This document shows positions 2,470-14,246 of a DNA stretch of 14,246 nucleotides, piece by piece. The notes beneath the pieces were generated by a model. That model was given only the letters and a program-made list of their open reading frames with translations, ran no database searches and had not been told where the DNA came from. The stretch's first letter is position 1, and each line of letters opens with the position of its first letter. The stretch comes from a virus (lineage: Duplodnaviria; Heunggongvirae; Uroviricota; Caudoviricetes), in the IMG/VR virus record IMGVR_UViG_2541047787_000008; one strand, 5' to 3'. A program made the translations under genes and the position numbers.

Positions 2470-2800
2470 AGAATCCTTAGCGTTGTGGTGAATGCGGCTC
2501 AGCGCACGCGGGTTAAGGTTGAGGCTGACAGTCGACCTTCTGTGGATACCCACCCGCCTGGTGTGCAACCTTCGCCAGGCACCGGGAGGCACCCGGCACC
2601 ACAACTTTATGCTGTGTGTAGTCCTGGCGGTACCAGCTTCTACCCTTGCTTCCGGCTGGTACCGCTCTTTTTACAAAACAGAGAAGAGCATCACCGGACG
2701 ACGGGCTCATAACCCAATCCACCGGGGCGGCTGCCACCGCAGGTGTTCTTCTCTGTTTTGTGGAGAAACCAACCGACCTTGCAGGGTCGATATGATGAGG
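2470..2800 (+). other. GC-rich, highly structured non-coding island (candidate ncRNA or terminator/antitermination element)
   Basis: About 63% GC in a hand-counted 60-nt stretch, against roughly 30-45% in flanking sequence. Several perfect stems; ORF-track ORFs here on both strands translate to low-complexity Arg/Pro/Gly-rich strings. The next real start looks like ATG 2810, preceded by GAGGAG. Confidence 0.4.
2627..2672 (+). terminator. Intrinsic-terminator-like hairpin inside the GC-rich island
   Basis: Perfect 11-bp stem gcggtaccagc (2627..2637) / gctggtaccgc (2655..2665) with a 17-nt loop, followed by TCTTTTT at 2666..2672. Confidence 0.55.
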
Positions 2801-2809
2801 AGCAGCAAA

Positions 2810-3172
2810 ATGGCTAGCGAACGCAGTACCAACGTGCAGGAATTTATCGGGGAGCTGGACGGCGGCGTATTTGAAACCAAAATCGGCGCAGTTCTCAGTG
2901 AAGTCGCTTCCGGTGTGATGAACACGAAAACCAAAGGTAAGGTCTCGCTCAACCTGGAAATCGAACCGTTTGATGAGAACCGTGTGAAAATAAAACACAA
3001 ACTCTCATATGTTCGTCCGACTAACCGCGGGAAAATTTCCGAAGAAGACACCACCGAAACGCCGATGTATGTCAATCGCGGTGGTCGCCTGACTATTCTG
3101 CAGGAAGACCAGGGACAATTACTGACTCTTGCCGGTGAACCTGACGGAAAACTCCGCGCAGCAGGTCATTAA
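2810..3172 (+). CDS. Hypothetical phage early protein, 120 aa (possibly YfdP-like)
   Basis: ATG at 2810 with GAGGAG 7 nt upstream; the 226-aa track ORF 2492..3172 is the same frame extended through the GC-rich region. YfdP assignment rests only on size and neighbourhood. Confidence 0.7.
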   Translation: MASERSTNVQEFIGELDGGVFETKIGAVLSEVASGVMNTKTKGKVSLNLEIEPFDENRVKIKHKLSYVRPTNRGKISEEDTTETPMYVNRGGRLTILQEDQGQLLTLAGEPDGKLRAAGH

Positions 3173-3237
3173 TATCGTTCTTAATTAACTGATTATTTAT
3201 CTCATCACTGAATATCTTTATATAGTGAGGACTTATT

Positions 3238-4062
3238 ATGTCTCAGAACTTAGACGCAACCGCAATTAATCAAATCCATGCCCTTATTTCTGCTCAGGGT
3301 GTTAATGAAATTATCAGTAAGATTGGTGCCGACGCAGTGGCATTACCTGAAAATTTCCGCATTCATGATCTGGAAAAATTTAATTTAAATCGCTTCCGTT
3401 TCCGTGGTGCGCTTTCCACTGCCAGCATCGATGACTTTACCCGTTATTCTAAAGATCTTGCGGATGAAGGCACCCGCTGCTTTATCGATGCCGATAATAT
3501 GCGTGCCGTCAGTGTGCTTAACCTGGGTACTATTGATGAGCCTGGTCACGCAGATAACACCGCCACTCTCAAACTGAAAAAGACAGCACCGTTCTCTGCT
3601 CTGTTGTCTGTTAACGGCGAGCGTAACTCCCAGAAGTCACTGGCAGAATGGATTGAAGACTGGGCCGACTACCTTGTGGGCTTTGATGCTAATGGTGATG
3701 CCATTCAGGCAACAAAAGCGGCTGCGGCAGTCCGTAAAATCACGATTGAAGCAAACCAGACCGCTGATTTTGAAGACAATGACTTCAGCGGCAAACGCTC
3801 CCTGATGGAGTCTGTCGAAGCGAAGACCAAAGATATTATGCCAGTGACATTTGAATTTAAATGCGTTCCGTTTGAAGGCCTGAAAGAACGTCCGTTTAAA
3901 TTACGCCTCAGCATTATCACTGGCGATCGTCCTGTACTGGTTCTGCGCATTATTCAGCTGGAAGCAGTGCAGGAAGAAATGGCTAACGAATTTCGTGATC
4001 TGCTTGTTGAGAAATTCAAGGACAGCAAAGTAGAAACCTTTATTGGTACTTTTACCGCCTGA
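3238..4062 (+). CDS. Phage protein of the YfdQ / DUF2303 type, 274 aa
   Basis: Clean ORF with GAGGA 8 nt upstream of the ATG. Length and position next to an HD hydrolase match the yfdP-yfdQ-yfdR module of the K-12 CPS-53/KplE1 prophage. Family call is from memory, not a search. Confidence 0.7.
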
Positions 4063-4189: not shown

Positions 4190-4714
4190 ATGTCATTTAT
4201 TAAAACTTTTTCCGGGAAGCATTTTTATTATGACAGGATAAATAAAGACGACATCGTTATTAACGATATCGCGGTTTCTCTTTCAAATATCTGTCGCTTT
4301 GCAGGACATCTTTCACATTTCTACAGCGTCGCCCAACATGCGGTGCTTTGCAGCCAACTGGTACCGCAGGAATTTGCTTTTGAAGCGTTAATGCATGATG
4401 CAACAGAAGCGTATTGCCAGGACATCCCGGCGCCACTGAAACGCCTTCTTCCTGACTATAAACGGATGGAAGAAAAAATAGACGCCGTAATCCGTGAGAA
4501 ATACGGGTTACCCCCGGTTATGAGTACGCCCGTGAAATATGCCGATCTCATCATGCTGGCAACCGAACGCCGCGATCTCGGGCTTGATGATGGCTCTTTC
4601 TGGCCCGTACTGGAAGGTATCCCGGCAACAGAGATGTTCAAAGTTATTCCACTGTCGCCAGGCCATACCTATGGGATGTTTATGGAACGCTTTAAAGAGT
4701 TAACTGAGTCGTAA
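4190..4714 (+). CDS. HD-domain phosphohydrolase (YfdR-like 5'-deoxynucleotidase family)
   Basis: HD-type metal-binding motifs (FAGHLSHFYSVAQH ... LMHDATEAY). Preferred start ATG 4190 with GGAGAA 4 nt upstream; the track ORF starts at 4163. Confidence 0.8.
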   Translation: MSFIKTFSGKHFYYDRINKDDIVINDIAVSLSNICRFAGHLSHFYSVAQHAVLCSQLVPQEFAFEALMHDATEAYCQDIPAPLKRLLPDYKRMEEKIDAVIREKYGLPPVMSTPVKYADLIMLATERRDLGLDDGSFWPVLEGIPATEMFKVIPLSPGHTYGMFMERFKELTES

Positions 4715-4822
4715 AAATCAGCACGTACGAATTCAAACTCTGCCATAAAAGAACATATAAGTAATTTATTAACATATAGATATAGGTTATATTACAAATT
4801 GAAAAATTATTGGAGAGCAACA

Positions 4823-5689
4823 ATGAATCAAAATCCATTCTCATTCTATGACTTTCTTGGATATTTAATACCAGGTGGTTTTTTTATCCTATTAATGTAT
4901 TTCTGTGGTTTGACATTCGATCTAGATATTGTTATTGACTTAAGTGAATTGCTCAGAGGTCAAAGTCAAATCTTTGGCATTTTGAACTACGCTTCAATAG
5001 TTATTATATCTTATATAGCTGGACATTTTATTTCTATCACGTCAGCATTTTTTATCGAAAAATACATGAATAAAGAATTAGGATATCCTTCCAAATATCT
5101 ATTTAAAAAATTGATAGATACCTCAGAAAGCATTTGTAGCCCATCATGCGATGAGAGAAGCGCTGATAAAAAAACAAAAATAAAGAATCGCATAATCAAA
5201 TGCGTATTATGTCCAATAATACTATGGGATTTTATAACACAAAAACTATGTTATTCTCAATCTCTACCATTTCATTTAGCTAATACAACATGGTTAATGA
5301 TCAAAGAAGGTTATGAGAAAAAGTTCATAACAAATCGCCAATTATTACAAGATAAAAACGGACTTGATGATGATCTCTTCAGATTGGCATATCATTATGT
5401 TTATGAGTTTTCAAAACAACATCAAACAAAAATTCAAAACTATGTTGCATTATATGGTTTTTGCAGAAACATATGTTTAATCTTTATAATTTCATTTTGG
5501 GTATCAGTTCCAACCTTTATTTATCGATTATGTACTCATAGTGATTATCTTTATAGTTTACTTTCAATAATGCTTAGCTTTTTCTTCGTCTATGTTTTCT
5601 ATGTTGGTTTTGTTAAATTTTATAGAAGATATACTTTAGAAGTATTAATGGCATTTGCTGTACTTCAAAGTAACGACACTATTCGTTAA
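4823..5689 (+). CDS. AT-rich hypothetical membrane protein in the slot between the early-left genes and xis
   Basis: Preferred start ATG 4823 with GGAG 7 nt upstream (track start 4799). About 28-35% GC in two hand-counted 60-nt stretches. Two hydrophobic helices at the N-terminus and two at the C-terminus flank a hydrophilic Cys-containing middle (CSPSC ... CVLCP). No family recognised. Confidence 0.75.
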   Translation: MNQNPFSFYDFLGYLIPGGFFILLMYFCGLTFDLDIVIDLSELLRGQSQIFGILNYASIVIISYIAGHFISITSAFFIEKYMNKELGYPSKYLFKKLIDTSESICSPSCDERSADKKTKIKNRIIKCVLCPIILWDFITQKLCYSQSLPFHLANTTWLMIKEGYEKKFITNRQLLQDKNGLDDDLFRLAYHYVYEFSKQHQTKIQNYVALYGFCRNICLIFIISFWVSVPTFIYRLCTHSDYLYSLLSIMLSFFFVYVFYVGFVKFYRRYTLEVLMAFAVLQSNDTIR

Positions 5690-5730
5690 TAATGTTGCTC
5701 CCGTGTGCAGACGGGATAATGGAGAAACGT

Positions 5731-5937
5731 ATGCTGAACCTCGATTGTGTTCCTATCTCAACTTATTGCAAAGAAACTGGCGAAACTCCTGAAGCAATAA
5801 ACAAACGTGTACAGCGCGGTGTTTGGCGTGAAGGTGTTCAGGTTTTAAAGGTTGAAGGCGTTAAGGAGAGGTGGATTGATCTTAGTGAGGTTGCAAAATG
5901 GGCCAGACAAAACTGCTCAAACTACCGCGCGGCGTAA
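5731..5937 (+). CDS. xis: Excisionase-like protein (Xis), about 68 aa
   Basis: Small basic ORF immediately upstream of int and overlapping it by about 40 nt, as in lambda. Preferred start ATG 5731 with GGAGAAA upstream; the track ORF starts at 5692. Confidence 0.65.
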   Translation: MLNLDCVPISTYCKETGETPEAINKRVQRGVWREGVQVLKVEGVKERWIDLSEVAKWARQNCSNYRAA

Positions 5938-7073
5938 CAATCAGGAAACACCGCCAGGGAGAAACGATCAATATAACTTTCACCTACAAAGGAGTTAGAT
6001 GTCGTGAGCCGCTTTCCAATCTGGAAGTAACACCAAAGAACATTAAATACGCCGAGCGTACACTCGGCGAAATCCATAATAAGATCGAAAGGGGAACATT
6101 CATTTATGCAGAATATTTTCCCCGTTCTGCTCGTTTGAAAATTTTTGGTAATGCTGCTGCAGGCAAAACGGTAAAGATGTACCTGGACGAATATCTTGAA
6201 ATCTGCGAAACAAGAAAACTTTCACCCTCTACGATTGGTGGCTATAAAAAATGCCGTAGTGCGTTAGCCTCACTTCACATTTGCCCTGCAAGTGAATTAA
6301 CACCAGCAACCCTGAAAGCGTGGATTCAAAGCCAGAAAACAACCTTAAAAACCATTCGCAACCAGTTATCTTTCCTACGGTCAGCACTTGATGAAGCCGT
6401 GACCGATGGGGTACTTCAAATTAACCCCGTATCGTTAGTAACAGCTTCGCGCTACCAAAGTGATAAGTCAGAAGCAGAAAGCAGCTATGTGGTTGATCCG
6501 CTATCACCAGCAGAAGTTGATGCATTACTAGCAGCAGCCGGAAACAAACAATGGGAAAATCTGTTCCGGTTCGCCATACATACAGGCCTGCGTAGTTCTG
6601 AATTATGTGCCCTACGATGGCATGATATCGACTTTGTTGGAAAAACAGCCCATGTTCAGAGCGCAAGTGTTGTCGGAGTTATCAAAGGAACAAAGACAAA
6701 AGCCGGTACCCGTAAAGTTGAACTGACTGAAGAAGCAATGTTGGCGTTGATAAACCAGAAGCCATTTACATTCATGAAGGATGCTACTGTCTTTGAAGAT
6801 CCAAAGACCAATAAACCCTGGGCAAGTGCTGATGCAATTAGGAAAAAAGCATGGGTGCCAACATTGCGAAAAGCAGGTATTCGTTACAGAAACCCATATC
6901 AAACCAGGCATACATTCGCCACCAGCCATATCAGCCGTGGTGCGAACCTGTTCTGGCTTGCAGGCCAGATGGGCCATAAGGGACCAGAAATGCTATTTCG
7001 TCACTATGGCAGTTACCTTGCTGCATATGACGGACATACCGCTAAAAATACTAATGATACAAAACAGGCTTGA
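5898..7073 (+). CDS. int: Phage integrase, tyrosine recombinase family
   Basis: 391-aa ORF with GAGG 7 nt upstream of the ATG. Catalytic-domain motifs are visible: HTGLRSSELCALRW (Arg box), QTRHTFATSH, MGHKG, and the terminal FRHYGSY with the candidate catalytic Tyr. Confidence 0.9.
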   Translation: MGQTKLLKLPRGVTIRKHRQGETINITFTYKGVRCREPLSNLEVTPKNIKYAERTLGEIHNKIERGTFIYAEYFPRSARLKIFGNAAAGKTVKMYLDEYLEICETRKLSPSTIGGYKKCRSALASLHICPASELTPATLKAWIQSQKTTLKTIRNQLSFLRSALDEAVTDGVLQINPVSLVTASRYQSDKSEAESSYVVDPLSPAEVDALLAAAGNKQWENLFRFAIHTGLRSSELCALRWHDIDFVGKTAHVQSASVVGVIKGTKTKAGTRKVELTEEAMLALINQKPFTFMKDATVFEDPKTNKPWASADAIRKKAWVPTLRKAGIRYRNPYQTRHTFATSHISRGANLFWLAGQMGHKGPEMLFRHYGSYLAAYDGHTAKNTNDTKQA

Positions 7074-7266
7074 TGCTGCCCGAACAAATAGCCACTGAAA
7101 CCTGATAAAAAGTTATTTGTGATGTGGTTATGTTCGTCATATCCACATCATACATACTTAAACATAAGGCACTTTTTACCTTGCAAAAATTCGAACCAAG
7201 CATTTATGTTATAGGTGAACTTGGTACTCAGGCAGCTGTCCTAGTACTAGGAACACGCGGGAAATC

Positions 7267-7296
7267 TTGGAGCCAGTACGTAGATTATGGTAAAAT
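7267..7296 (+). promoter_or_regulatory. Candidate promoter for the downstream two-gene cassette
   Basis: TTGGAG at 7267..7272, 18-nt spacer, extended -10 TGgTAAAAT at 7288..7296. A 12-bp perfect palindrome cctagtactagg lies upstream at 7240..7251. Confidence 0.45.
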
Positions 7297-7368
7297 CCCG
7301 CGCCCCGTTCTGCGGGGAGCAATAAATGCCTCAAAAGGATACATTGGGGGGACTGAAAGGAGGTCTTT

Positions 7369-7617
7369 ATGTCAGAACTAGTCATGAAGATGTTTGGGCT
7401 GAATGATTTGGTCAAAGGCGGACAAGCCATGGCCGATCGTTTGAACAAATCTGGTGTTAAAAACATCAAGGTCGTAGGGCGTGGTGCAGTTATTGTAGAC
7501 CCATCTACTGACCCAGAAAAAATCACTCAGCTTAGGAAAGCAGCTAGAAAATTCGTCGAGCAGGATGCAAAAGCTGTTGCAGCCGCTAAAGCTAACTCAA
7601 TGGACAATGACGACTAA
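7369..7617 (+). CDS. Hypothetical small soluble protein (82 aa), first gene of the int-proximal cassette
   Basis: Strong AAGGAGG at 7357..7363, 5 nt before the ATG. Charged, Ala/Lys-rich C-terminal half. No family recognised. Confidence 0.75.
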   Translation: MSELVMKMFGLNDLVKGGQAMADRLNKSGVKNIKVVGRGAVIVDPSTDPEKITQLRKAARKFVEQDAKAVAAAKANSMDNDD

Positions 7618-7620
7618 CAA

Positions 7621-8439
7621 ATGTTTGCATTGCTGATCATTCCACTTTTAGTAAGTGGATCCTTACTGGTTACATCGCCCCATAACATCAAATTATTCTA
7701 TCGACTCCACCGTTACGACGGCCAGCTTCTCTATATGAAGGTGGCCACGTACGGTGTGTACTCGTTCATTGTTGCAGTCGTGCTGGCGTATGCAACCAAG
7801 TACTTTATACCAAGCCTTACACTGGTCACATGGGTATCACATCTTATTGATGGTAGTGCAGACCCTAAAGAAAACAGGATAACATCATGGCTCATCCTGC
7901 TATCAGTGGCGACTTGTGGAGTTGCTTTTATTTGGTTGCAGATATGCAAATTTCGTATGTTTGTGGCAGCCAAAACTATTAGTTCTGCATCCAATAATGC
8001 AATTTCTATCAATTTCGCAAAGCAACTAATCAGGCTTAATGAGTTGGAAAAACTGTTGTCTGATGGCTCACTTGGTCAGCTATTCTTTGATTCAGCGACT
8101 ACAAACAGACCGGTACTGATAAGCCTGAAATGCCGCAAAGTATATGTCGGAACAGTTAACATGATTAGTGAGCCAAACGAAAAACAAGGCCCTAACCTTG
8201 AAATTTCTATTAGCCCAATCATATCTGGTTACAGGGACAAGGACACACTAAGGGTCCTGTTTTCAAATGATTACAACGATCTTGATGGAGTTGATACCAG
8301 TATCATATTTCCATTAAGTGAGGTTTCGCATGCTTCTTGGTTCAATATGGATATACATGAAAAAGTAGACAATAACCGAGAGAAGAAACCAGAAACAAAC
8401 CGCAAGAAAAAACGTAAATATGGCAGGACTACGAATTGA
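7621..8439 (+). CDS. Hypothetical membrane-anchored protein (272 aa), second gene of the cassette
   Basis: ATG 3 nt after the stop of the 82-aa gene (TAA caa ATG), suggesting coupling. Three hydrophobic helices in the first ~110 residues, a soluble C-terminal domain, and a Lys/Arg-rich tail (REKKPETNRKKKRKYGRTTN). No family recognised. Confidence 0.75.
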   Translation: MFALLIIPLLVSGSLLVTSPHNIKLFYRLHRYDGQLLYMKVATYGVYSFIVAVVLAYATKYFIPSLTLVTWVSHLIDGSADPKENRITSWLILLSVATCGVAFIWLQICKFRMFVAAKTISSASNNAISINFAKQLIRLNELEKLLSDGSLGQLFFDSATTNRPVLISLKCRKVYVGTVNMISEPNEKQGPNLEISISPIISGYRDKDTLRVLFSNDYNDLDGVDTSIIFPLSEVSHASWFNMDIHEKVDNNREKKPETNRKKKRKYGRTTN

Positions 8440-8513
8440 TAGTAAAATATCCGCAAAAGAGCCGTAAGAACCAACTTTAAATTTTATTCGTTATAAATCA
8501 ACGCATTGCAAAT

Positions 8514-8542
8514 ATTCGGACACGGGTTCAACTCCCGCCAGC
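8514..8542 (+). other. Partial copy of the ssrA (tmRNA) 3' end: attachment-site core repeat
   Basis: attcggacACgggttcaactcccgccagc matches the E. coli tmRNA 3' end (as recalled: ...TTCGGACGCGGGTTCAACTCCCGCCAGCTCCACCA) with one mismatch, but lacks the terminal TCCACCA and the upstream tmRNA body. Followed by the 14-bp palindrome ccaatcatgattgg at 8542..8555. Confidence 0.6.
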
Positions 8543-8673
8543 CAATCATGATTGGACGGTATAAGGACAACACCAATAAAAACAGTAAGTTAGCAGTCTC
8601 AGCAGGACACCGACCAGACGGTGAAGAGACATAAAAGGATACGCAAAGGAGCCGCGGCTCCTGGTGACATGAA

Positions 8674-8695
8674 AGCCCACAGATGTGGGCTTTTT
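8674..8695. terminator. Terminator hairpin between the att region and the autotransporter 3' end
   Basis: Stem gcccac / gtgggc (8675..8690) followed by TTTTT at 8691..8695 on the plus strand. On the minus strand the same hairpin is followed by TTTCAT, just downstream of the autotransporter stop at 8705. Confidence 0.6.
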
Positions 8696-8704
8696 CGTTG
8701 ATGG

Positions 8705-11700
8705 TCAGAACGACCAGTTCACACCAGCTACCCCGTTCCACGGGGATTCCACACCGGCACCATGGCTATACCCCACCCCAAGATGCCCGCTTAACGTACT
8801 GCTGAATGAGGCTTTAATACCTGCCTGGTATATTCCACGTCTGCCCGACAAATCATTGACGAAATTACCGTCACTATTCACTTTCACCCGGTTATCATCG
8901 ACAAATTCTTTGCGCACAGCCGCCTTCAGCCACGGCTCAACTTCCATACCGTTCCCCAGACGCATGTTGTAACTCAGCGTTGCACCCAGTTCACGATATA
9001 AACTGCGGGTATCGACTGATTTCGATTCCATGCCATTGGATAAATGATATTCAGGGTTATCAGCGGTGAACCCCCGTTAACGATGCATACGGCGTCAGGT
9101 TCCAGTTACCATCGGTAAATCGCATCCCGGTTTCAATGTGACCGCCCAGCCCGTAGCTGCGATAACTGCCGTTGGCGGCTCCACCGCTGCCAACCGTGGA
9201 GTCGCGAGCTTCGGTACCTGCTAATACCAATAAATTACCGCCATTTTCCAGCAACATATTGGTCGCTAAATTGCCGGAAATGGAAAAAGTGCCGTACTGG
9301 TGAGTACCGCTGATTTCAATACCGTTAGCCGTGCTCGTCTGGAGAGCGGCACCGCTGTTCTGGACGATATCTGTCGCTTTGCCATTATCGTTAACTGTCA
9401 GCGTACCGCCTTCATTGATCTTTGTTTTTATTGCCTCTCCGTTAGCTGAAACTGTTTGTATTCCGCCGTCGTTAATCGTTGTCTCATTCGCCACCCCCTC
9501 GACGATTTGTTCGCCGCCGGTGAGCGTCGTGCCTGTCGCAGTGGCTTTTGTTTTGACGATCTCCCGTCCGCCCGTATTGACCTGTGTTTTGTCAGAAGAG
9601 GTGTCTGACTCCACGGTTAACACGCCGCCATTTGCCAGCAGGATATTGTTCGCCGCACCCTGCTCGATGCTGAACGCGACGCCATCCGCGCGTGTTCCTG
9701 TGACCCGCGTCGCCCTGGTGGTTGCAACCAAAGCGCCCTGGCTACTCTGCTGTATCCCCGTTGCGCTGCCTTTCTCCCGCACATCGAGTGTGCCGCCGTC
9801 ATTAAGCACCGAGTTTTCAGCCAGACCGCCCTCATTAACTACCTGTGAACACCCATTAATAATGGAACCTTCCGCTATCCCGTTTGCCATAATTTGTTGT
9901 AGGCCAGAGACGATATCGGTATTGATCGCCTTACCATAATTCTGAACGGTTTGTGTGCCGCCATTGATGTGCGTTTTGTCAGTTGACCCACCATCAACAA
10001 TTTGTTCACCACTTTCAATATTTGCCTCAGTGGCTAAACCATATACCGTTTGCTTGCCACCTTTGATATTTGCTTTATCAGAAGTGGCACTGGCATATAT
10101 TGTTTGGGTGCCAGCACTATTAAGTACAGTGCCAACATCTTTTCCATAAACATCCATTTTGCCGTTGGCATTAATAATCGTATCAACTGCCCGGGAACCA
10201 GTGACGACTGTTAATGAGCCAGCGTTTTCCAGCACTACATTTTTAGCTTCTGAATTCCTGATGTAGAAAGCATCACCATAACTGTTGGTTCCTTCGATAA
10301 GGGTTCCGGAAGTTGTGGAAGCAATTAATGCGCCGCCGGATTGTTGCTCAACATGCTTAGCCTCACCACCGTCCTGAACCTCCAGAACGCCACCATTATT
10401 AAGTCTGGTGGTATCTGTTTTAGCCTCCTTCTGGACAATCAGCTTACCGCCAGCATCAACGGTAGTATTTTTCGCCGAGGTTTTAGCCACTACCGTCAGT
10501 TCGCCGGTATTTTCCAGCACAACATAATTAGCCTCCCCTCCGGTAATAGTGAAGTGAGAGAGCTTGTTGTATCCTTCAATATCAGTCCCTGCGCCCGTGT
10601 TGGCAACTAAAGCACTGCCCGTCTCCTGGTTAACCCCATGTGCAATACCGCCGGTATAGACAATCAGCGAGCCTCCGGCGCTAATATTGCTGCCAATTGC
10701 CGTACCATCTTTCTCAACAACTTGCTGGCTCCCGGAGGATATAATTGTTGTGTCAGCTTTCCCACCGCTTTTGATATTTTGCGTTCCGCTGTTGATATTG
10801 GTGCCTGTGGCTATGCCATAATTATTAAGATTCTGTGTGCCACCATTAATTATGGTATTTGTCGCGTTTCCTGCAACATCCATAACCCCGCCATTATCTA
10901 TTCGGGTCGCATCAGCTTTAGCATTCGTTAAAACTGACATTGTTCCTTTATCTTTAATAATCGTCTTGTTTGCGGAATGAGATACTTCTAAATGGCCTCC
11001 ATTTTCCAGCAACACATTGTCTTCCACTTTATTGTGGATGGAGAATGCACCTTCACTATTCGTACCGCTCACCGTCGTACCGTTAGTGTTTGTTTTTAAA
11101 ATTGCACCATCGTGCTGGGTAACATTTGTTGCCGTACCACCACTAACATCAAGCACGCCACCGGAATAAACTTCAATAACATCCGAGGTGCTGGTGTTAT
11201 CAACAATTTGCGTGCCACCAGAATAGATCTGCGTAATTTTTGCCGTTGACTTACTATTCAGAGACTGAGTTCCGCCTTCAATCGTCGTGTCCAGCGCACG
11301 GCTCTCATATACTCTTTGCTCACCGCCATTTTTAATGGTTGTTGTTTCTACTGTGCTCTGTTCAACATACTGTCGACCACCATTTATGGTTGTGTTCGTT
11401 GCCAGACTTCCTTGTACTACGTCCTGAGAGCCAGACTTATTTATCGTTGTACCATCAGCATGCCCTTGAACTTTTACTATCTGGCTACCACCATCAATGA
11501 GTATTCCATTCGCACTCCCTCCCTCTACGCGTGAAGCACCGCCCTTAATTGTCGTTCCATTGCTGATACCCCCTTTATAAACGTCCTGATTGCCACTCTC
11601 GATTGTCGTACCTGTGGAAATACCCCCGTCATGAATTGACTGTCTGCCACCGTTAATGGTTGTATTATTAGCCTGCCCCACAAAATTGTTATGACTTCCT

Positions 11701-11969
11701 ATATCTTGATATCCACCAGATTCAATAAGACTTCCATTAGATACCCCGCCATGAACATTCTGCTGGTCATGGTTGATAATATGAGTGTTATTTGTTGTAC
11801 CTCGTTCATCCACTTTTTGGTTGCCATCTACAGTCTCATCGTTTACCACACCAATAACATCAGGAGTGAAGGCCGCCATACCGGGCGGGGCATATATCAA
11901 GGCAGATATCAATAAGGAAAGTACTGAGCGGCGACAATAATGGGGACTGGTCCTGTTCATAAATTTCAT
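8705..11969 (-). pseudogene. AIDA-I-type autotransporter adhesin, disrupted by a frameshift near the passenger/translocator junction
   Basis: The 1009-aa track ORF 9060..12089 carries a signal peptide (MKFMNRTSPHYCRRSVLSLLISALIYAPPGMAA) and passenger repeats; the track ORF 8705..9031 in another frame ends in the autotransporter C-terminal motif ...GVNWSF. The two frames join across a C5 run (plus strand 9071..9075). Start chosen at the signal-peptide Met (11969 or 11960), not the track start. Confidence 0.75.
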
Positions 11970-12298
11970 CCTCTGAAAAGTGAATACTGAGTAGCGTTTA
12001 AGCGACCTTAGCTCTGCTGCAACATCAGCCCACAGGCACCAGACCAGGGGATTCATCCTGAAGAGACAGCGCAAGTGTATTGTGTTCACCGCTCATCAAA
12101 GACATCATGATGAAATGATGATATTCCACATAAGAAAGAAGCATTTTTTAAACGCAGTGCGCTGAAGTATGGTTGGATAAAAAAGTCAATCTATTCAGGG
12201 AATACGGGGGTATTCTTTTCTTTCGACAATCAGGTCGTCGGCAAAATAAAATGATTTACATAATCGTTTCTGATGAATATCTTCTGCTCACATAAAAA

Positions 12299-12540
12299 TC
12301 ACACAATAACTTTGAGATCGCAGATTCTTTTACTTTTACAGCATTCGTCCCCCCATTGTTGGGCAAATATAGATTGGGCCAGAGCACGAAAGTTAATACC
12401 ACGTTTGCACAGCTCCTCCAACAGCACGACAAGATGCCACATACTGCGCCCCAGTCGGTTCGGTTTACAGACTACCCGTGCGTCCACCGCCGATAATGTC
12501 CTGAGCAGTTTTTTCAGTCCGGACCTCCTGCCACGGTTTT
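12299..12540 (-). pseudogene. Serine invertase/resolvase remnant (Pin/Hin/Gin family), frameshifted and truncated
   Basis: Minus-strand translation gives ...RSGLKKLLRTLSAVDARVVCKPNRLGRSMWHLVVLLEELCKRGINFRALAQSI, closely resembling the catalytic-domain core of Pin-type invertases (...[33 protein letters not shown]...). The N-terminus is missing and the frame is lost at a G6 run. In K-12 a pinH remnant lies beside the ypjA autotransporter, from memory. Confidence 0.6.
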
Positions 12541-12872
12541 ACGTTGAAGAGGTAACCCTGAGCACGCAGTTCATCAGTCAGGCGTGGTGTACCGTAACCC
12601 TATTATTGATGGGTAAGATCAAAAAAACTTTCAGGCAGCTAAGGAAAGTTGAACCAGACATTAGAATAAATATTTCAACCAATTACAGCACCAATTCAGA
12701 CACCGCCAGCTCAACAAATAAATCAAGGGGTTACGTGAAAGCGTAGCCCCTTTTTCTTTGGTAGTGGCAGCAAAATGGTTGTAGTGTAAAAAATAATCCC
12801 GTTTAATCAATCAATAATACATATTGTTTCAATCTACGTTATTATCTCTTTGTAAAAATAGCCATTTATTAA

Positions 12873-14246
12873 TCATTGAAAACTGCTTTTAGAACTTGAT
12901 ACAACGGGACTAGTCACAACAGGACTATTCTCAACGGGATCATCCTCAGAGGAACTATCATCAAAGTCATCATCCATAAATAAAATATCATCGAATGGTG
13001 CCACGCCCGTGATGAGTTTTATTTTATTATTACGATCAGTCAAGACTCCACTTAAACCGTTTTCGCTCACAGGTTTTAATGATTTTTCATTACTCTTGTT
13101 GTAAGCAGGCGCATTAAAAATACACGGAGTATCAAGATCAAACAATGACGTTCCCCAGTTCACATATTGAATATCATAGTTACTGAAGTTCTGTCCAGAA
13201 AAGAAGCATCCCTTAAAATCCAATCCACCTAAATTATATAAACCATCCTCTTCTTTTTGGAGAGTAATGTTAATTTTGGCTATCTCCCGGACATCATCGC
13301 CATTTTTATATTTGAATACCGTTTCAAGATTTTCCCCACACAGTTTGACTTCTGGAAATAATTTGAAATCAAAGCCTATATTATTATGTATCAACGTAGA
13401 TGAACAAAAGATGGAGAAAGCTTGCAGTGCTGAATTATAGCTTTCGATTTTATCCTGAGGCTGCGCTCTTGGTAAAAACTCATAGCAACATTCATAAAAA
13501 TTAAGTAGAAACTCTGAAGACCTTCCATTTTTATCAAATAATATCCCCTTGAACTCATTCACAAACGCATCTTTTTTTTCTTGAATATCTATGGGGTGTT
13601 CCTTTGACTCTGACAAAGATGAAATCTCATCTATTTTGTTTTCATATGAATTACGTGATTCCATACAGACATTTGGCGGCGTTTCTAAAATAACACTACG
13701 CGTACTACTTGGCTTAAGTAAACCAACATGAAAATCACTTTTTCTTATATTATCGAAAAGGTTCTGTTCATTTCTTTTAGCGCATTCAAAAAACTGATCG
13801 GCATTATTTTTATTCGATAATTTTTTAGTTTCAGAAAACACATTTTCATTGTTTTCCAGCTTTAGTTTAATGAGAAGATTTTCCCAGACCTGCTTGCTTA
13901 AACATATTACGTCAGGCTCACCAGAACTAACTAACTCGTGATTATTATTAAAGTGTACGTTGAATACCTTTAAGTTATTTTCACCAACTTCATATTTAAT
14001 ACGTTTTAATTGTTCTCCAGCTCCCATAATGACAAAGGCGTTGCCTTCTTGATATATACATTCAGACATCATTTTTTGTAAAGTTTCAAGAGCACCGCGA
14101 TACGTCTCTGATGCAGCTTCCTTACAAATTAATTTTAAAATACTATGAGCTAGTAGCTCCATGTGTTTAGAAGATTTATTTTCATTATAACTTCCACTAC
14201 CCAAAACTGCGCTAGCGTTAAATCCGTTGCTTTTACTAACTAACAT
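12873..14246 (-). CDS. AT-rich hypothetical protein (at least 457 aa; N-terminus at or beyond the window edge)
   Basis: Long open frame on the minus strand reaching the window end. AT-rich coding sequence, acidic Ser/Asp-rich C-terminal tail. No family recognised with confidence. Confidence 0.65.
   Translation of the reverse strand: MLVSKSNGFNASAVLGSGSYNENKSSKHMELLAHSILKLICKEAASETYRGALETLQKMMSECIYQEGNAFVIMGAGEQLKRIKYEVGENNLKVFNVHFNNNHELVSSGEPDVICLSKQVWENLLIKLKLENNENVFSETKKLSNKNNADQFFECAKRNEQNLFDNIRKSDFHVGLLKPSSTRSVILETPPNVCMESRNSYENKIDEISSLSESKEHPIDIQEKKDAFVNEFKGILFDKNGRSSEFLLNFYECCYEFLPRAQPQDKIESYNSALQAFSIFCSSTLIHNNIGFDFKLFPEVKLCGENLETVFKYKNGDDVREIAKINITLQKEEDGLYNLGGLDFKGCFFSGQNFSNYDIQYVNWGTSLFDLDTPCIFNAPAYNKSNEKSLKPVSENGLSGVLTDRNNKIKLITGVAPFDDILFMDDDFDDSSSEDDPVENSPVVTSPVVSSSKSSFQ

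Follow-up and report, generated by a model that had tools for sequence, protein, structure and literature searches.

What kind of gene lies between yfdR and the excisionase gene xis in a lambdoid prophage of E. coli, at a much lower GC content than its neighbours, and what could it do there? This question is raised by the whole stretch of DNA analyzed here (the window), 14,246 nucleotides (nt) of a Caudoviricetes record (IMGVR_UViG_2541047787_000008). An earlier reading made from the letters alone (hereafter the sequence-only reading) had described the gene in question (hereafter the target) as an accessory gene, acquired horizontally and located in a variable slot near xis, possibly for a single-gene exclusion or abortive-infection protein or a lysogenic-conversion factor. 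On the basis of the present results, the target is a real gene that is under purifying selection, was horizontally acquired and is interchangeable with other cargo. Its family is, judged from profile similarity and collinear motifs, a distant member of the Csx27 superfamily and not a Csx27 equivalog. What appears to be new here is a solitary, enlarged and proteobacterial branch of that superfamily, which is borne on mobile genetic elements and for which Pfam has no model.

The target protein and its relation to Csx27

The open reading frame (ORF) of the target runs from an ATG at 4823 to a stop codon at 5687-5689 and encodes 288 amino acids (aa). The start had previously been placed at 4715, which is the first base past the yfdR stop codon; the gene itself is real, but its ATG lies at 4823. 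It has a ribosome-binding site of its own, as had been proposed (GGAG at 4812-4815, 7 nt 5' of the ATG). The GC content of the target is 28.4% (21.5% at third codon positions, GC3), compared with 45-54% in the adjoining genes. This is 3.9 standard deviations below the value for non-overlapping 867-nt segments (44.7 +/- 4.2%), and no other stretch of this length in the window is lower; 60-nt segments within the target range from 20 to 42%. The description of a very AT-rich gene downstream of a GC-rich island was therefore accurate, the island peaking at 70% in a 60-nt segment at ~2540. The target DNA is 100% identical to a UTI89 locus whose product (WP_001075212.1) is annotated as 'hypothetical protein', and a literature search for accession WP_001075212 found no paper. 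Comparison with the Salmonella copy gave a ratio of nonsynonymous to synonymous substitution rates (dN/dS) of 0.18 for the target and 0.06 for xis and for int, which indicates purifying selection with faster protein change in the target.

The leader upstream of the target (4715-4822) is AT-rich (25.9% GC), as the sequence-only reading had stated, whereas the promoter-like hexamers and the own promoter that it also proposed were not recovered: a sigma-70 scan gave no site in 4715-4822, and the two sites in 4400-6100 were fewer than in shuffled sequence (6.8 +/- 2.3). No terminator-like site was found by scanning between yfdR and the target or between the target and xis. Such promoter and terminator scans are weak evidence in DNA of 26% GC. 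Since neither signal was found, the target is no less likely to be transcribed by read-through from the early-left operon than from a promoter of its own.

The predicted protein contains hydrophobic helices at residues ~12-32, 52-78, 206-232 and 244-264, in a 2+2 layout around a Lys-rich hydrophilic domain of 125 residues. Lys and Arg residues number 21 in the central segment (79-205) and 4 in the C-terminal tail, and the loop at 33-51 is acidic. According to the positive-inside rule, this charge distribution suggests that the N terminus, the central domain and the C terminus all face the cytoplasm. An AlphaFold2 (AF2) model computed with the family alignment was all-helical, with a predicted local distance difference test score (pLDDT) of 90.2 and a predicted template modeling score (pTM) of 0.89, and its helices span 8-31, 52-86, 198-237 and 243-281. 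We infer that the all-helical domain of ~125 residues between the second and third transmembrane (TM) helices (TM2 and TM3) would be cytoplasmic, together with a short N terminus and the C-terminal tail. The layout proposed earlier, with a Cys-containing hydrophilic domain, held as far as the helices and the presence of cysteines are concerned (Cys105, 109, 127, 130 and 143). However, these cysteines vary even among enterobacterial homologues, so that the label carries no functional weight and a functional role for them is not supported.

The family is large and has been annotated hardly at all. Pfam gave no match for the target or for 48 diverse family members, and structure searches of PDB and BFVD found no relative of the AF2 model. 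In PHROGs the target corresponds over its full length to phrog_12528 (E 8e-174), which is of 'unknown function', and all 593 relatives in the protein database are 'hypothetical'. A profile search against 1.84 billion cluster representatives (clustered at 50% identity) returned 958 clusters with E <= 1e-3, including 208 with E <= 1e-30; nearly all of them are 270-300 aa long and match end to end. A megablast search of the phage collection gave no match, and phage homologues were found by tblastn.

The family alignment comprises 149 members with 26-79% identity to the target (most 29-36%). Residues F6, Y14, Y64, G67, S74, E79, R215 and K265 are invariant across all of them. Further residues are kept in at least 90% of the members, namely P5, S7, Y9, D10, F11, L12, G13, P17, G18 and H68 in the first part, Y88, P89, S90, P131, H191, E195, H200 and K203 in the middle, and N206-L210, G212, F263, F266, R268, E273 and M276 in the C-terminal part. 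The conserved polar residues fall at cytoplasmic helix ends, in the juxtamembrane helix before TM3 and, in the case of R215, inside TM3. In the model, a polar set consisting of D10, H68, S74, E79, H191, E195, H200, K203, N206, R215, K265, R268 and E273 is predicted to lie at the cytoplasmic mouth of the helix bundle or inside TM3.

The relation to Csx27 was found with profiles in both directions. The PADLOC hidden Markov model (HMM) for Csx27 matched the target with E 1.4e-5 (residues 6-268 on profile positions 4-188 of 206) and 35 of the 48 diverse members (best E 1.3e-8). The NCBIfam model (NF040557) matched nine of these 48, all below threshold (best E 2e-6). The target scored 14.9 bits on it (E 0.02; residues 5-43 only) against a curated cutoff of 65 bits, and is thus not a Csx27 equivalog. 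A bona fide csx27 gene was located through the Bergeyella zoohelcum VI-B repeat and Cas13b neighbours: in Capnocytophaga stomatis it is a 219-aa ORF 10 bp upstream of cas13b, and its product scored 290 bits on NF040557. Conversely, the HMM of the 149-member family scored the C. stomatis protein at 24.0 bits (E 4.5e-9 in a set of three sequences). Pairwise BLASTP with Csx27 gave weak collinear matches, such as E 3.5e-5 for a homologue from a Klebsiella phage, and hhalign against the single Csx27 sequence only 16% probability. Two motifs are collinear in the proteins. The N-terminal one reads SIYELLSFVVPG in Csx27 and SFYDFLGYLIPG in the target (common form S-x-Y-[DE]-x-L-x-[YF]-x-x-P-G). The one entering TM3 reads NFQSIYFLFRN in Csx27 and NYVALYGFCRN in the target and is preceded by ..F..AY.Y.. 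(common form F..AY.Y...K.qN[YF]..[LI]Y.[FL].RN). The features that define the superfamily were therefore all found (the 2+2 TM layout with a cytoplasmic insert, two-way profile similarity and collinear motifs), whereas those of Csx27 in the strict sense were not, as the score lies below the 65-bit cutoff and the neighbours are yfdR, xis and int rather than cas13b.

Csx27 (type VI-B1 CRISPR-Cas13b; NF040557; PADLOC PDLC01605, tm_4) and the target also resemble each other in other respects. Both have four TM helices in a 2+2 layout with a cytoplasmic insert, and both are low-GC accessory genes of patchy presence. On the other hand, the target, at 288 aa, has a much longer cytoplasmic domain than the 219-aa Csx27, and Csx27 is found in CRISPR loci of Bacteroidota, whereas the target family is proteobacterial and is carried by prophages, integrons and P2 phages. 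Unlike in the case of Csx27, no cas13b gene or CRISPR array was identified near the target in the scans made (no Cas protein in Pfam and PADLOC scans of the larger window ORFs, no match in the Rfam scan of the window; no dedicated search for CRISPR repeats was carried out).

Relatives of Csx27 outside CRISPR loci have been noticed before. Makarova, Gao, Zhang and Koonin reportedly described in 2019 an expansive family of four-TM, Csx27-related proteins far beyond CRISPR loci, for which they are said to have predicted an action on nucleic acids at the membrane. Members of that family are said to stand in operons with natural-transformation, ubiquitin-system, WYL or DNA-modification genes. The Csx27 family is also reported to have been predicted to form single-stranded DNA (ssDNA) channels. 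The target is likewise a four-TM relative of Csx27 outside CRISPR loci, but in contrast with those operons its subfamily is solitary in the window and in ~18 homologue loci (those checked were L001, L003, L006-L009, L012, L014, L017, L019-L024, L027 and L035). The exceptions are a paralogue in P2-like phages (L026 and L028), which is accompanied by a DUF4760 gene, and the E. coli 13E0780 locus (L003), where a coiA gene lies on the opposite strand. In the latter locus (4634-8387), the opposite strand carries the coiA competence-protein gene and a Panacea-domain gene, and coiA lies ~0.5 kb downstream of a frameshifted target copy; given the reported link between the Csx27 family and genes for natural transformation, this coiA is noteworthy.

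Slot occupancy and distribution of the family

The window covers one end of a lambdoid prophage, with its early-left and integration genes, and continues into chromosomal DNA. The features around the slot are listed below.

1066-1740, + strand: CI-like repressor with S24 peptidase domain, ymfK-like (Pfam Peptidase_S24, phrog_4 and annotation)
2492-3172, + strand: yfdP, in the early-left block
3238-4062, + strand: yfdQ/DUF2303, between yfdP and yfdR
4190-4714, + strand: yfdR, HD-domain 5'-deoxynucleotidase (phrog_318, E 8e-107), left flank of the slot
4710-4822, + strand: AT-rich leader (26% GC), from the yfdR stop codon to the target ATG, at the left end of the swapped segment
4710-5699, no strand: exchangeable cargo segment (blastn of the window against the E. 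coli AVS0362 prophage, and the annotation of the latter)
4823-5689, + strand: target coding sequence, predicted 288-aa four-TM inner-membrane protein and putative Csx27-superfamily member (ORF, translation and phrog_12528)
5719-5937, + strand: excisionase gene xis (phrog_2917 excisionase, E 5.6e-45), right flank of the slot
5898-7073, + strand: tyrosine integrase gene int, with Arm-DNA-bind_2 N terminus (Pfam and blastn)

The S24 CI-like repressor identifies the element as a lambdoid prophage, with the slot at the distal end of the leftward early region. The conserved left flank, yfdR, is the last gene of the yfdP-yfdQ-yfdR block; its Pfam YfbR-like match was slightly below threshold (24.4 bits versus a cut-off of 25.9). 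Either 5719 or 5731 could be the start of xis.

We examined the occupancy of this slot in 5426 complete E. coli genomes, in which yfdR was found in 2971, this xis-int pair in 399 and the target in 205. The target adjoins xis-int in 181 of the 399 genomes that carry the pair, and 176 of its 205 E. coli copies are at least 99% identical. Homology with sister prophages breaks at window position 4709/4710 and resumes at ~5700. In the prophage of E. coli AVS0362, whose flanks are 96% identical to the window, the segment 4710-5699 is replaced by ORFs of 120 and 71 aa, and the same replacement is seen in two other loci (L005 and L025). In an O157 prophage, yfdR is followed by a hypothetical gene, an S-adenosylmethionine (SAM) methyltransferase gene and an exonuclease fragment, and in E. 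coli 13E0780 by the frameshifted target copy mentioned above (88% identity), which lies ahead of a PrtN-type excisionase gene. Thus, as in morons and hotspot cargo, unrelated genes stand at the same position between conserved flanks, and the composition of the target is unlike that of the element (28.4% versus 44.7% GC). This occupancy, the swapping of cargo in sister prophages and the low GC content support well the proposal of a horizontally acquired accessory gene in a variable, xis-proximal slot. The sequence-only reading would have been contradicted by a gene common at this site in related prophages with normal composition, or by clear homology to a non-defence function. Instead, the target recurs in several genera, is always of aberrant composition (5-22 GC points below the surroundings in twelve loci from six or more genera) and is interchangeable, and no homology of the latter kind was found.

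In prophages of Salmonella and Klebsiella oxytoca that lack yfdPQR, homology to the window begins at 4808-4810, at the ribosome-binding site of the target, and continues through xis and int at 80-83% DNA identity. The synonymous divergence (dS) from Salmonella is 0.75 for the target, 0.80 for xis and 1.09 for int, and these similar values suggest that the three genes diverged together. Judged from these comparisons, target, xis and int are a co-inherited module across genera. A homologue (48-78% identity) immediately precedes xis-int in Salmonella, K. oxytoca, Enterobacter hormaechei and Cronobacter and in Klebsiella phage P7641, although the types of xis and int differ. In E. hormaechei (48%), Cronobacter (52%) and phage P7641 (52%), what follows the homologue is a short ORF resembling xis and then an integrase whose type is not that of the window.

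More distant homologues were found in other kinds of elements. In Luteimonas and in a 3.8-Mb metagenomic contig (32-34% identity), they are single-gene integron cassettes bracketed by attC sites within long chromosomal arrays. At L008, attC sites at 7909-7983 and 8813-8887 surround the homologue at 8001-8834 in an array with 16 or more attC copies, and at L007 attC-like repeats at 7956-7983 and 8869-8896 surround the homologue at 8001-8867. A Thioalkalivibrio homologue lies on an island with HipAB, HicAB, MazE and an HNH protein, and a Pseudomonas homologue is followed by a small membrane protein. No conserved partner gene was seen across L006, L007, L008, L009 and L012. In three or more kinds of mobile element, the family thus behaves as an autonomous and interchangeable unit of one gene. 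Integron cassettes of unknown function have been reported to encode defence (bioRxiv 10.1101/2024.07.02.601719).

A paralogue with 43% identity is present in P2-like phages (vB_EcoM-705R2 and P88-like), with the portal gene Q on one side and the replication gene A on the other. It lies 40 bp downstream of a gene for the one-TM DUF4760 protein WP_001068329, and this two-gene unit (at L028 4464-5843 in E. coli 4/1-1) occurs in 289 of the 5426 E. coli genomes. A literature search for DUF4760 gave a single paper, which deals with genomic islands of a Serratia strain. The gpA-gpQ locus is the P2 hotspot with old and tin and holds many anti-phage systems (PMC9122126). Table S5B of Rousset 2022 (PMC9122126) lists System #3, 'DUF4760', with 1102 occurrences and the description '1 TM in protein 1, 4 TM in protein 2'. 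Its protein 2, WP_000193205, is this paralogue and begins MTQNPFSFYDFLGYLIPGG; it shares with the target the N-terminus M-x-QNPFSFYDFLGYLIPGG and the C-terminal motif, and both are cargo of temperate E. coli phages at variable loci. Unlike System #3, the target has no DUF4760 partner, and the phage family (Peduoviridae for System #3) and the locus (gpA-gpQ) differ. A wider survey bears on such hotspots: six of eight randomly chosen loci of unknown function in P4 hotspots protected against phages, and 15-32% of unknown P2-hotspot proteins were scored as antiviral by machine learning (bioRxiv 10.64898/2026.02.27.708500).

Possible functions of the target

We tentatively propose, at a probability just short of even, that the target is a membrane phage-exclusion or defence protein which acts alone and would protect the lysogen. 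This reading is circumstantial and is suggested by the paralogue in a validated P2 defence hotspot, the homologues in integron cassettes and the relationship to Csx27. The target would then be a mobile single-gene cargo (a 'moron') of the lambdoid prophage with a four-pass inner-membrane product. In an exclusion variant, it would stop the nucleic acid of an incoming phage from crossing the inner membrane; in an abortive variant, it would open or perturb the membrane, perhaps as a gated pore, once infection is sensed. The estimate just given covers both variants together. In either case the cytoplasmic helical domain may be the sensing or gating part, and the polar cluster of D10, E79, N206, R215 and K265 may form the functional site. 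A more specific form of the proposal, which is possible but doubtful, is that the target is a free-living, single-protein form of the Csx27 superfamily that combines sensor and effector and might control the passage of foreign nucleic acid or membrane integrity upon phage attack.

Membrane proteins of prophage exclusion or abortive infection that are encoded in or beside the lysogeny module include lambda RexB, HK97 gp15, lactococcal Sie2009 and T4 Imm. Like the target, these are small multi-pass inner-membrane proteins encoded by dispensable cargo of patchy presence near int, the repressor gene or xis. The target differs from them in that it has no sequence or fold similarity to any of them, is larger and has a conserved cytoplasmic domain. 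RexB is also known to need RexA, whereas the target has no partner; a RexAB-like pair was ruled out, as no RexA-like neighbour is present. A conversion module of the O-antigen/Gtr type was likewise ruled out, as there is neither a partner gene nor any similarity.

Several observations weigh against a defence role. PADLOC gave no match to a validated stand-alone defence protein, but only to Csx27 and tm_4, with faint PDC-M48A matches for 3 of the 48 diverse members. No recognizable sensor domain was found in the target, and its fold, which is without a solved relative, suggests no mechanism. In Rousset's work, the sequence of System #3 appears only in the catalogue (Table S5) and is absent from the table of evaluated systems. 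Experimental evidence on the superfamily consists of one result, a reduction of Cas13b interference by Csx27 (PMC8209922; PMC11662929), which does not point to defence. In addition, one E. coli copy is frameshifted (13E0780), and the homologue at L006 stands alone between unrelated operons in an ordinary chromosomal context. The target is also co-oriented with the early-left operon and xis-int and has no detectable upstream promoter, so that it may be expressed in the lytic phase; expression at that stage rather than in the lysogen would fit a phage-serving function better.

Such a function, in the phage life cycle or in counter-defence, would imply that the target is expressed from the early-left transcript once the phage has been induced or has infected a cell. 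The protein might then modulate the membrane of the host or a defence or transport system located in it, as Csx27 damps Cas13b, or it might provide or alter a conduit for nucleic acid. We consider this unlikely, even though the target shares its strand and operon position with yfdPQR and xis-int without promoter or terminator signals around it, has diverged together with xis-int across genera, and belongs with proteins of which one is reported to repress Cas13b interference and which are reported to be predicted ssDNA channels. The target is missing from about 55% of the E. coli prophages that have this xis-int and is therefore dispensable for the phage. Moreover, homologues in integron cassettes and non-phage islands are found where a role in the phage life cycle makes no sense, and the Salmonella homologue is preceded not by an early operon but by a 700-nt spacer and, before that, a strong terminator downstream of cI. 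No cas13b context was seen in the E. coli genome collection searched with the target, and E. coli is not known to have type VI CRISPR. That the target is instead a lysogenic-conversion or host-fitness factor unrelated to phages (for example, in the envelope, transport, stress tolerance or virulence) seems quite unlikely. Its carriers include UTI89, S88, APEC O1, IHE3034, NU14 and other extra-intestinal pathogens, and many are extra-intestinal pathogenic or avian pathogenic E. coli (ExPEC/APEC). However, clonal inheritance of a single prophage accounts for this bias, given the near-identity of most copies. Integron cassettes also bring adaptive functions other than defence, and a catalytic or ligand-binding site could be made up of conserved His, Glu and Asp residues located at the membrane interface; yet no similarity to transporter, enzyme or envelope-modification families was found in Pfam, NCBIfam, PDB or BFVD, and there is no partner gene such as one for a glycosyltransferase.

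It is very improbable that the target is a selfish membrane toxin or addiction element which stabilizes the prophage or cassette by harming cells that lose or mis-express it. A small membrane protein on mobile elements would suit this role, homologues lie among toxin-antitoxin genes at L012 and in the L008 cassette array, and one copy is frameshifted. Nevertheless, no conserved antitoxin-like partner or antisense RNA adjoins the homologues, 288 aa with a large conserved cytoplasmic domain is unlike the known small hydrophobic toxins, and purifying selection extends over the whole length. Finally, a chance ORF or decaying remnant in AT-rich DNA, as the composition and the ubiquitous annotation as 'hypothetical protein' might suggest, is in practice refuted by the sequence conservation, as the family numbers 958 clusters and some residues stay invariant even where identity is only 24-35%. 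A dN/dS of 0.18, a confident AF2 model (pLDDT 90, pTM 0.89) and a proper ribosome-binding site also speak against it.

The exclusion or defence reading matters beyond this prophage, since the family amounts to ~1000 clusters at 50% identity that are annotated as hypothetical throughout and have no Pfam model. Within the P2 defence hotspot it ranks with the most frequent cargo, and integrons and lambdoid prophages carry it as well. Csx27 itself has reportedly been known as a Cas13b modulator since 2017. If an autonomous defence function of this superfamily proved true, it would represent a new, widespread single-gene anti-phage system that spreads between prophages, P2 hotspots and integrons, and would give a first functional handle, in E. 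coli, on the role of Csx27 beside Cas13b. If it proved false, a major occupant of a 'defence hotspot' would not be a defence gene, which would be useful for methods that infer function from location. The target is present in well-studied and genetically tractable strains (UTI89, S88 and APEC O1), and as a single-gene unit without a partner it allows a clean knock-out or expression test and is worth testing at the bench.

The host element and other loci

UTI89 has the same gene arrangement as the window, with 99.4% identity. The same phage is represented by a 44.6-kb circular record (NZ_CP148393.1; 44,611 bp), which is labelled as a 'plasmid' and non-mobilizable replicon and whose target copy is 99.3% identical. 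This record is probably the excised prophage, and its circular form, if so, suggests that the element is still active. No tRNA genes were found in the window. The match to UTI89 and other prophages ends at ~7009, 64 bp short of the end of int, and the flank of the window is also unlike that of UTI89; thus, the integrase C terminus and the attachment site may differ between near-identical prophages.

A second variable slot lies directly after int (window 7100-8700). In the window it holds a 272-aa ORF (7621-8439, + strand) without a Pfam or PADLOC match, which was considered as a relative of the target or of the ORF at the same place in Salmonella and is related to neither. In other prophages with the same int, this slot is occupied by that 270-aa ORF (Salmonella), by an AAA_15/AAA_21 ATPase gene and a Dam-like methylase gene (K. 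oxytoca and E. coli AH19E045), or by an AAA ATPase gene and two hypothetical genes (the 44.6-kb circular record). The pair of ATPase and methylase looks like a defence system.

In the Salmonella prophage at L020 (5263-6000), a strong intrinsic terminator (5277-5299) lies between cI and the target homologue and is followed by ~700 nt of GC-rich DNA, which in most copies has no called ORF and gave no Rfam match. The same locus carries a C4 antisense RNA and isrK at 3117-3305.

The remainder of the window (8484-14246, - strand) looks like chromosomal flank. An AIDA-type autotransporter gene is apparently split there into a part for 1009 aa (9060-12089) and a beta-domain fragment (8705-9031). A second AT-rich block (12600-14246; 33% GC) encodes a DUF5507/DUF5508 protein and runs off the window. 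At the other end, the GC-rich peak at 2400-2850 falls in the N-terminal part of the long yfdP ORF (2492-3172), and the UTI89 annotation has a frameshifted hypothetical gene of its own there, ahead of a shorter yfdP.

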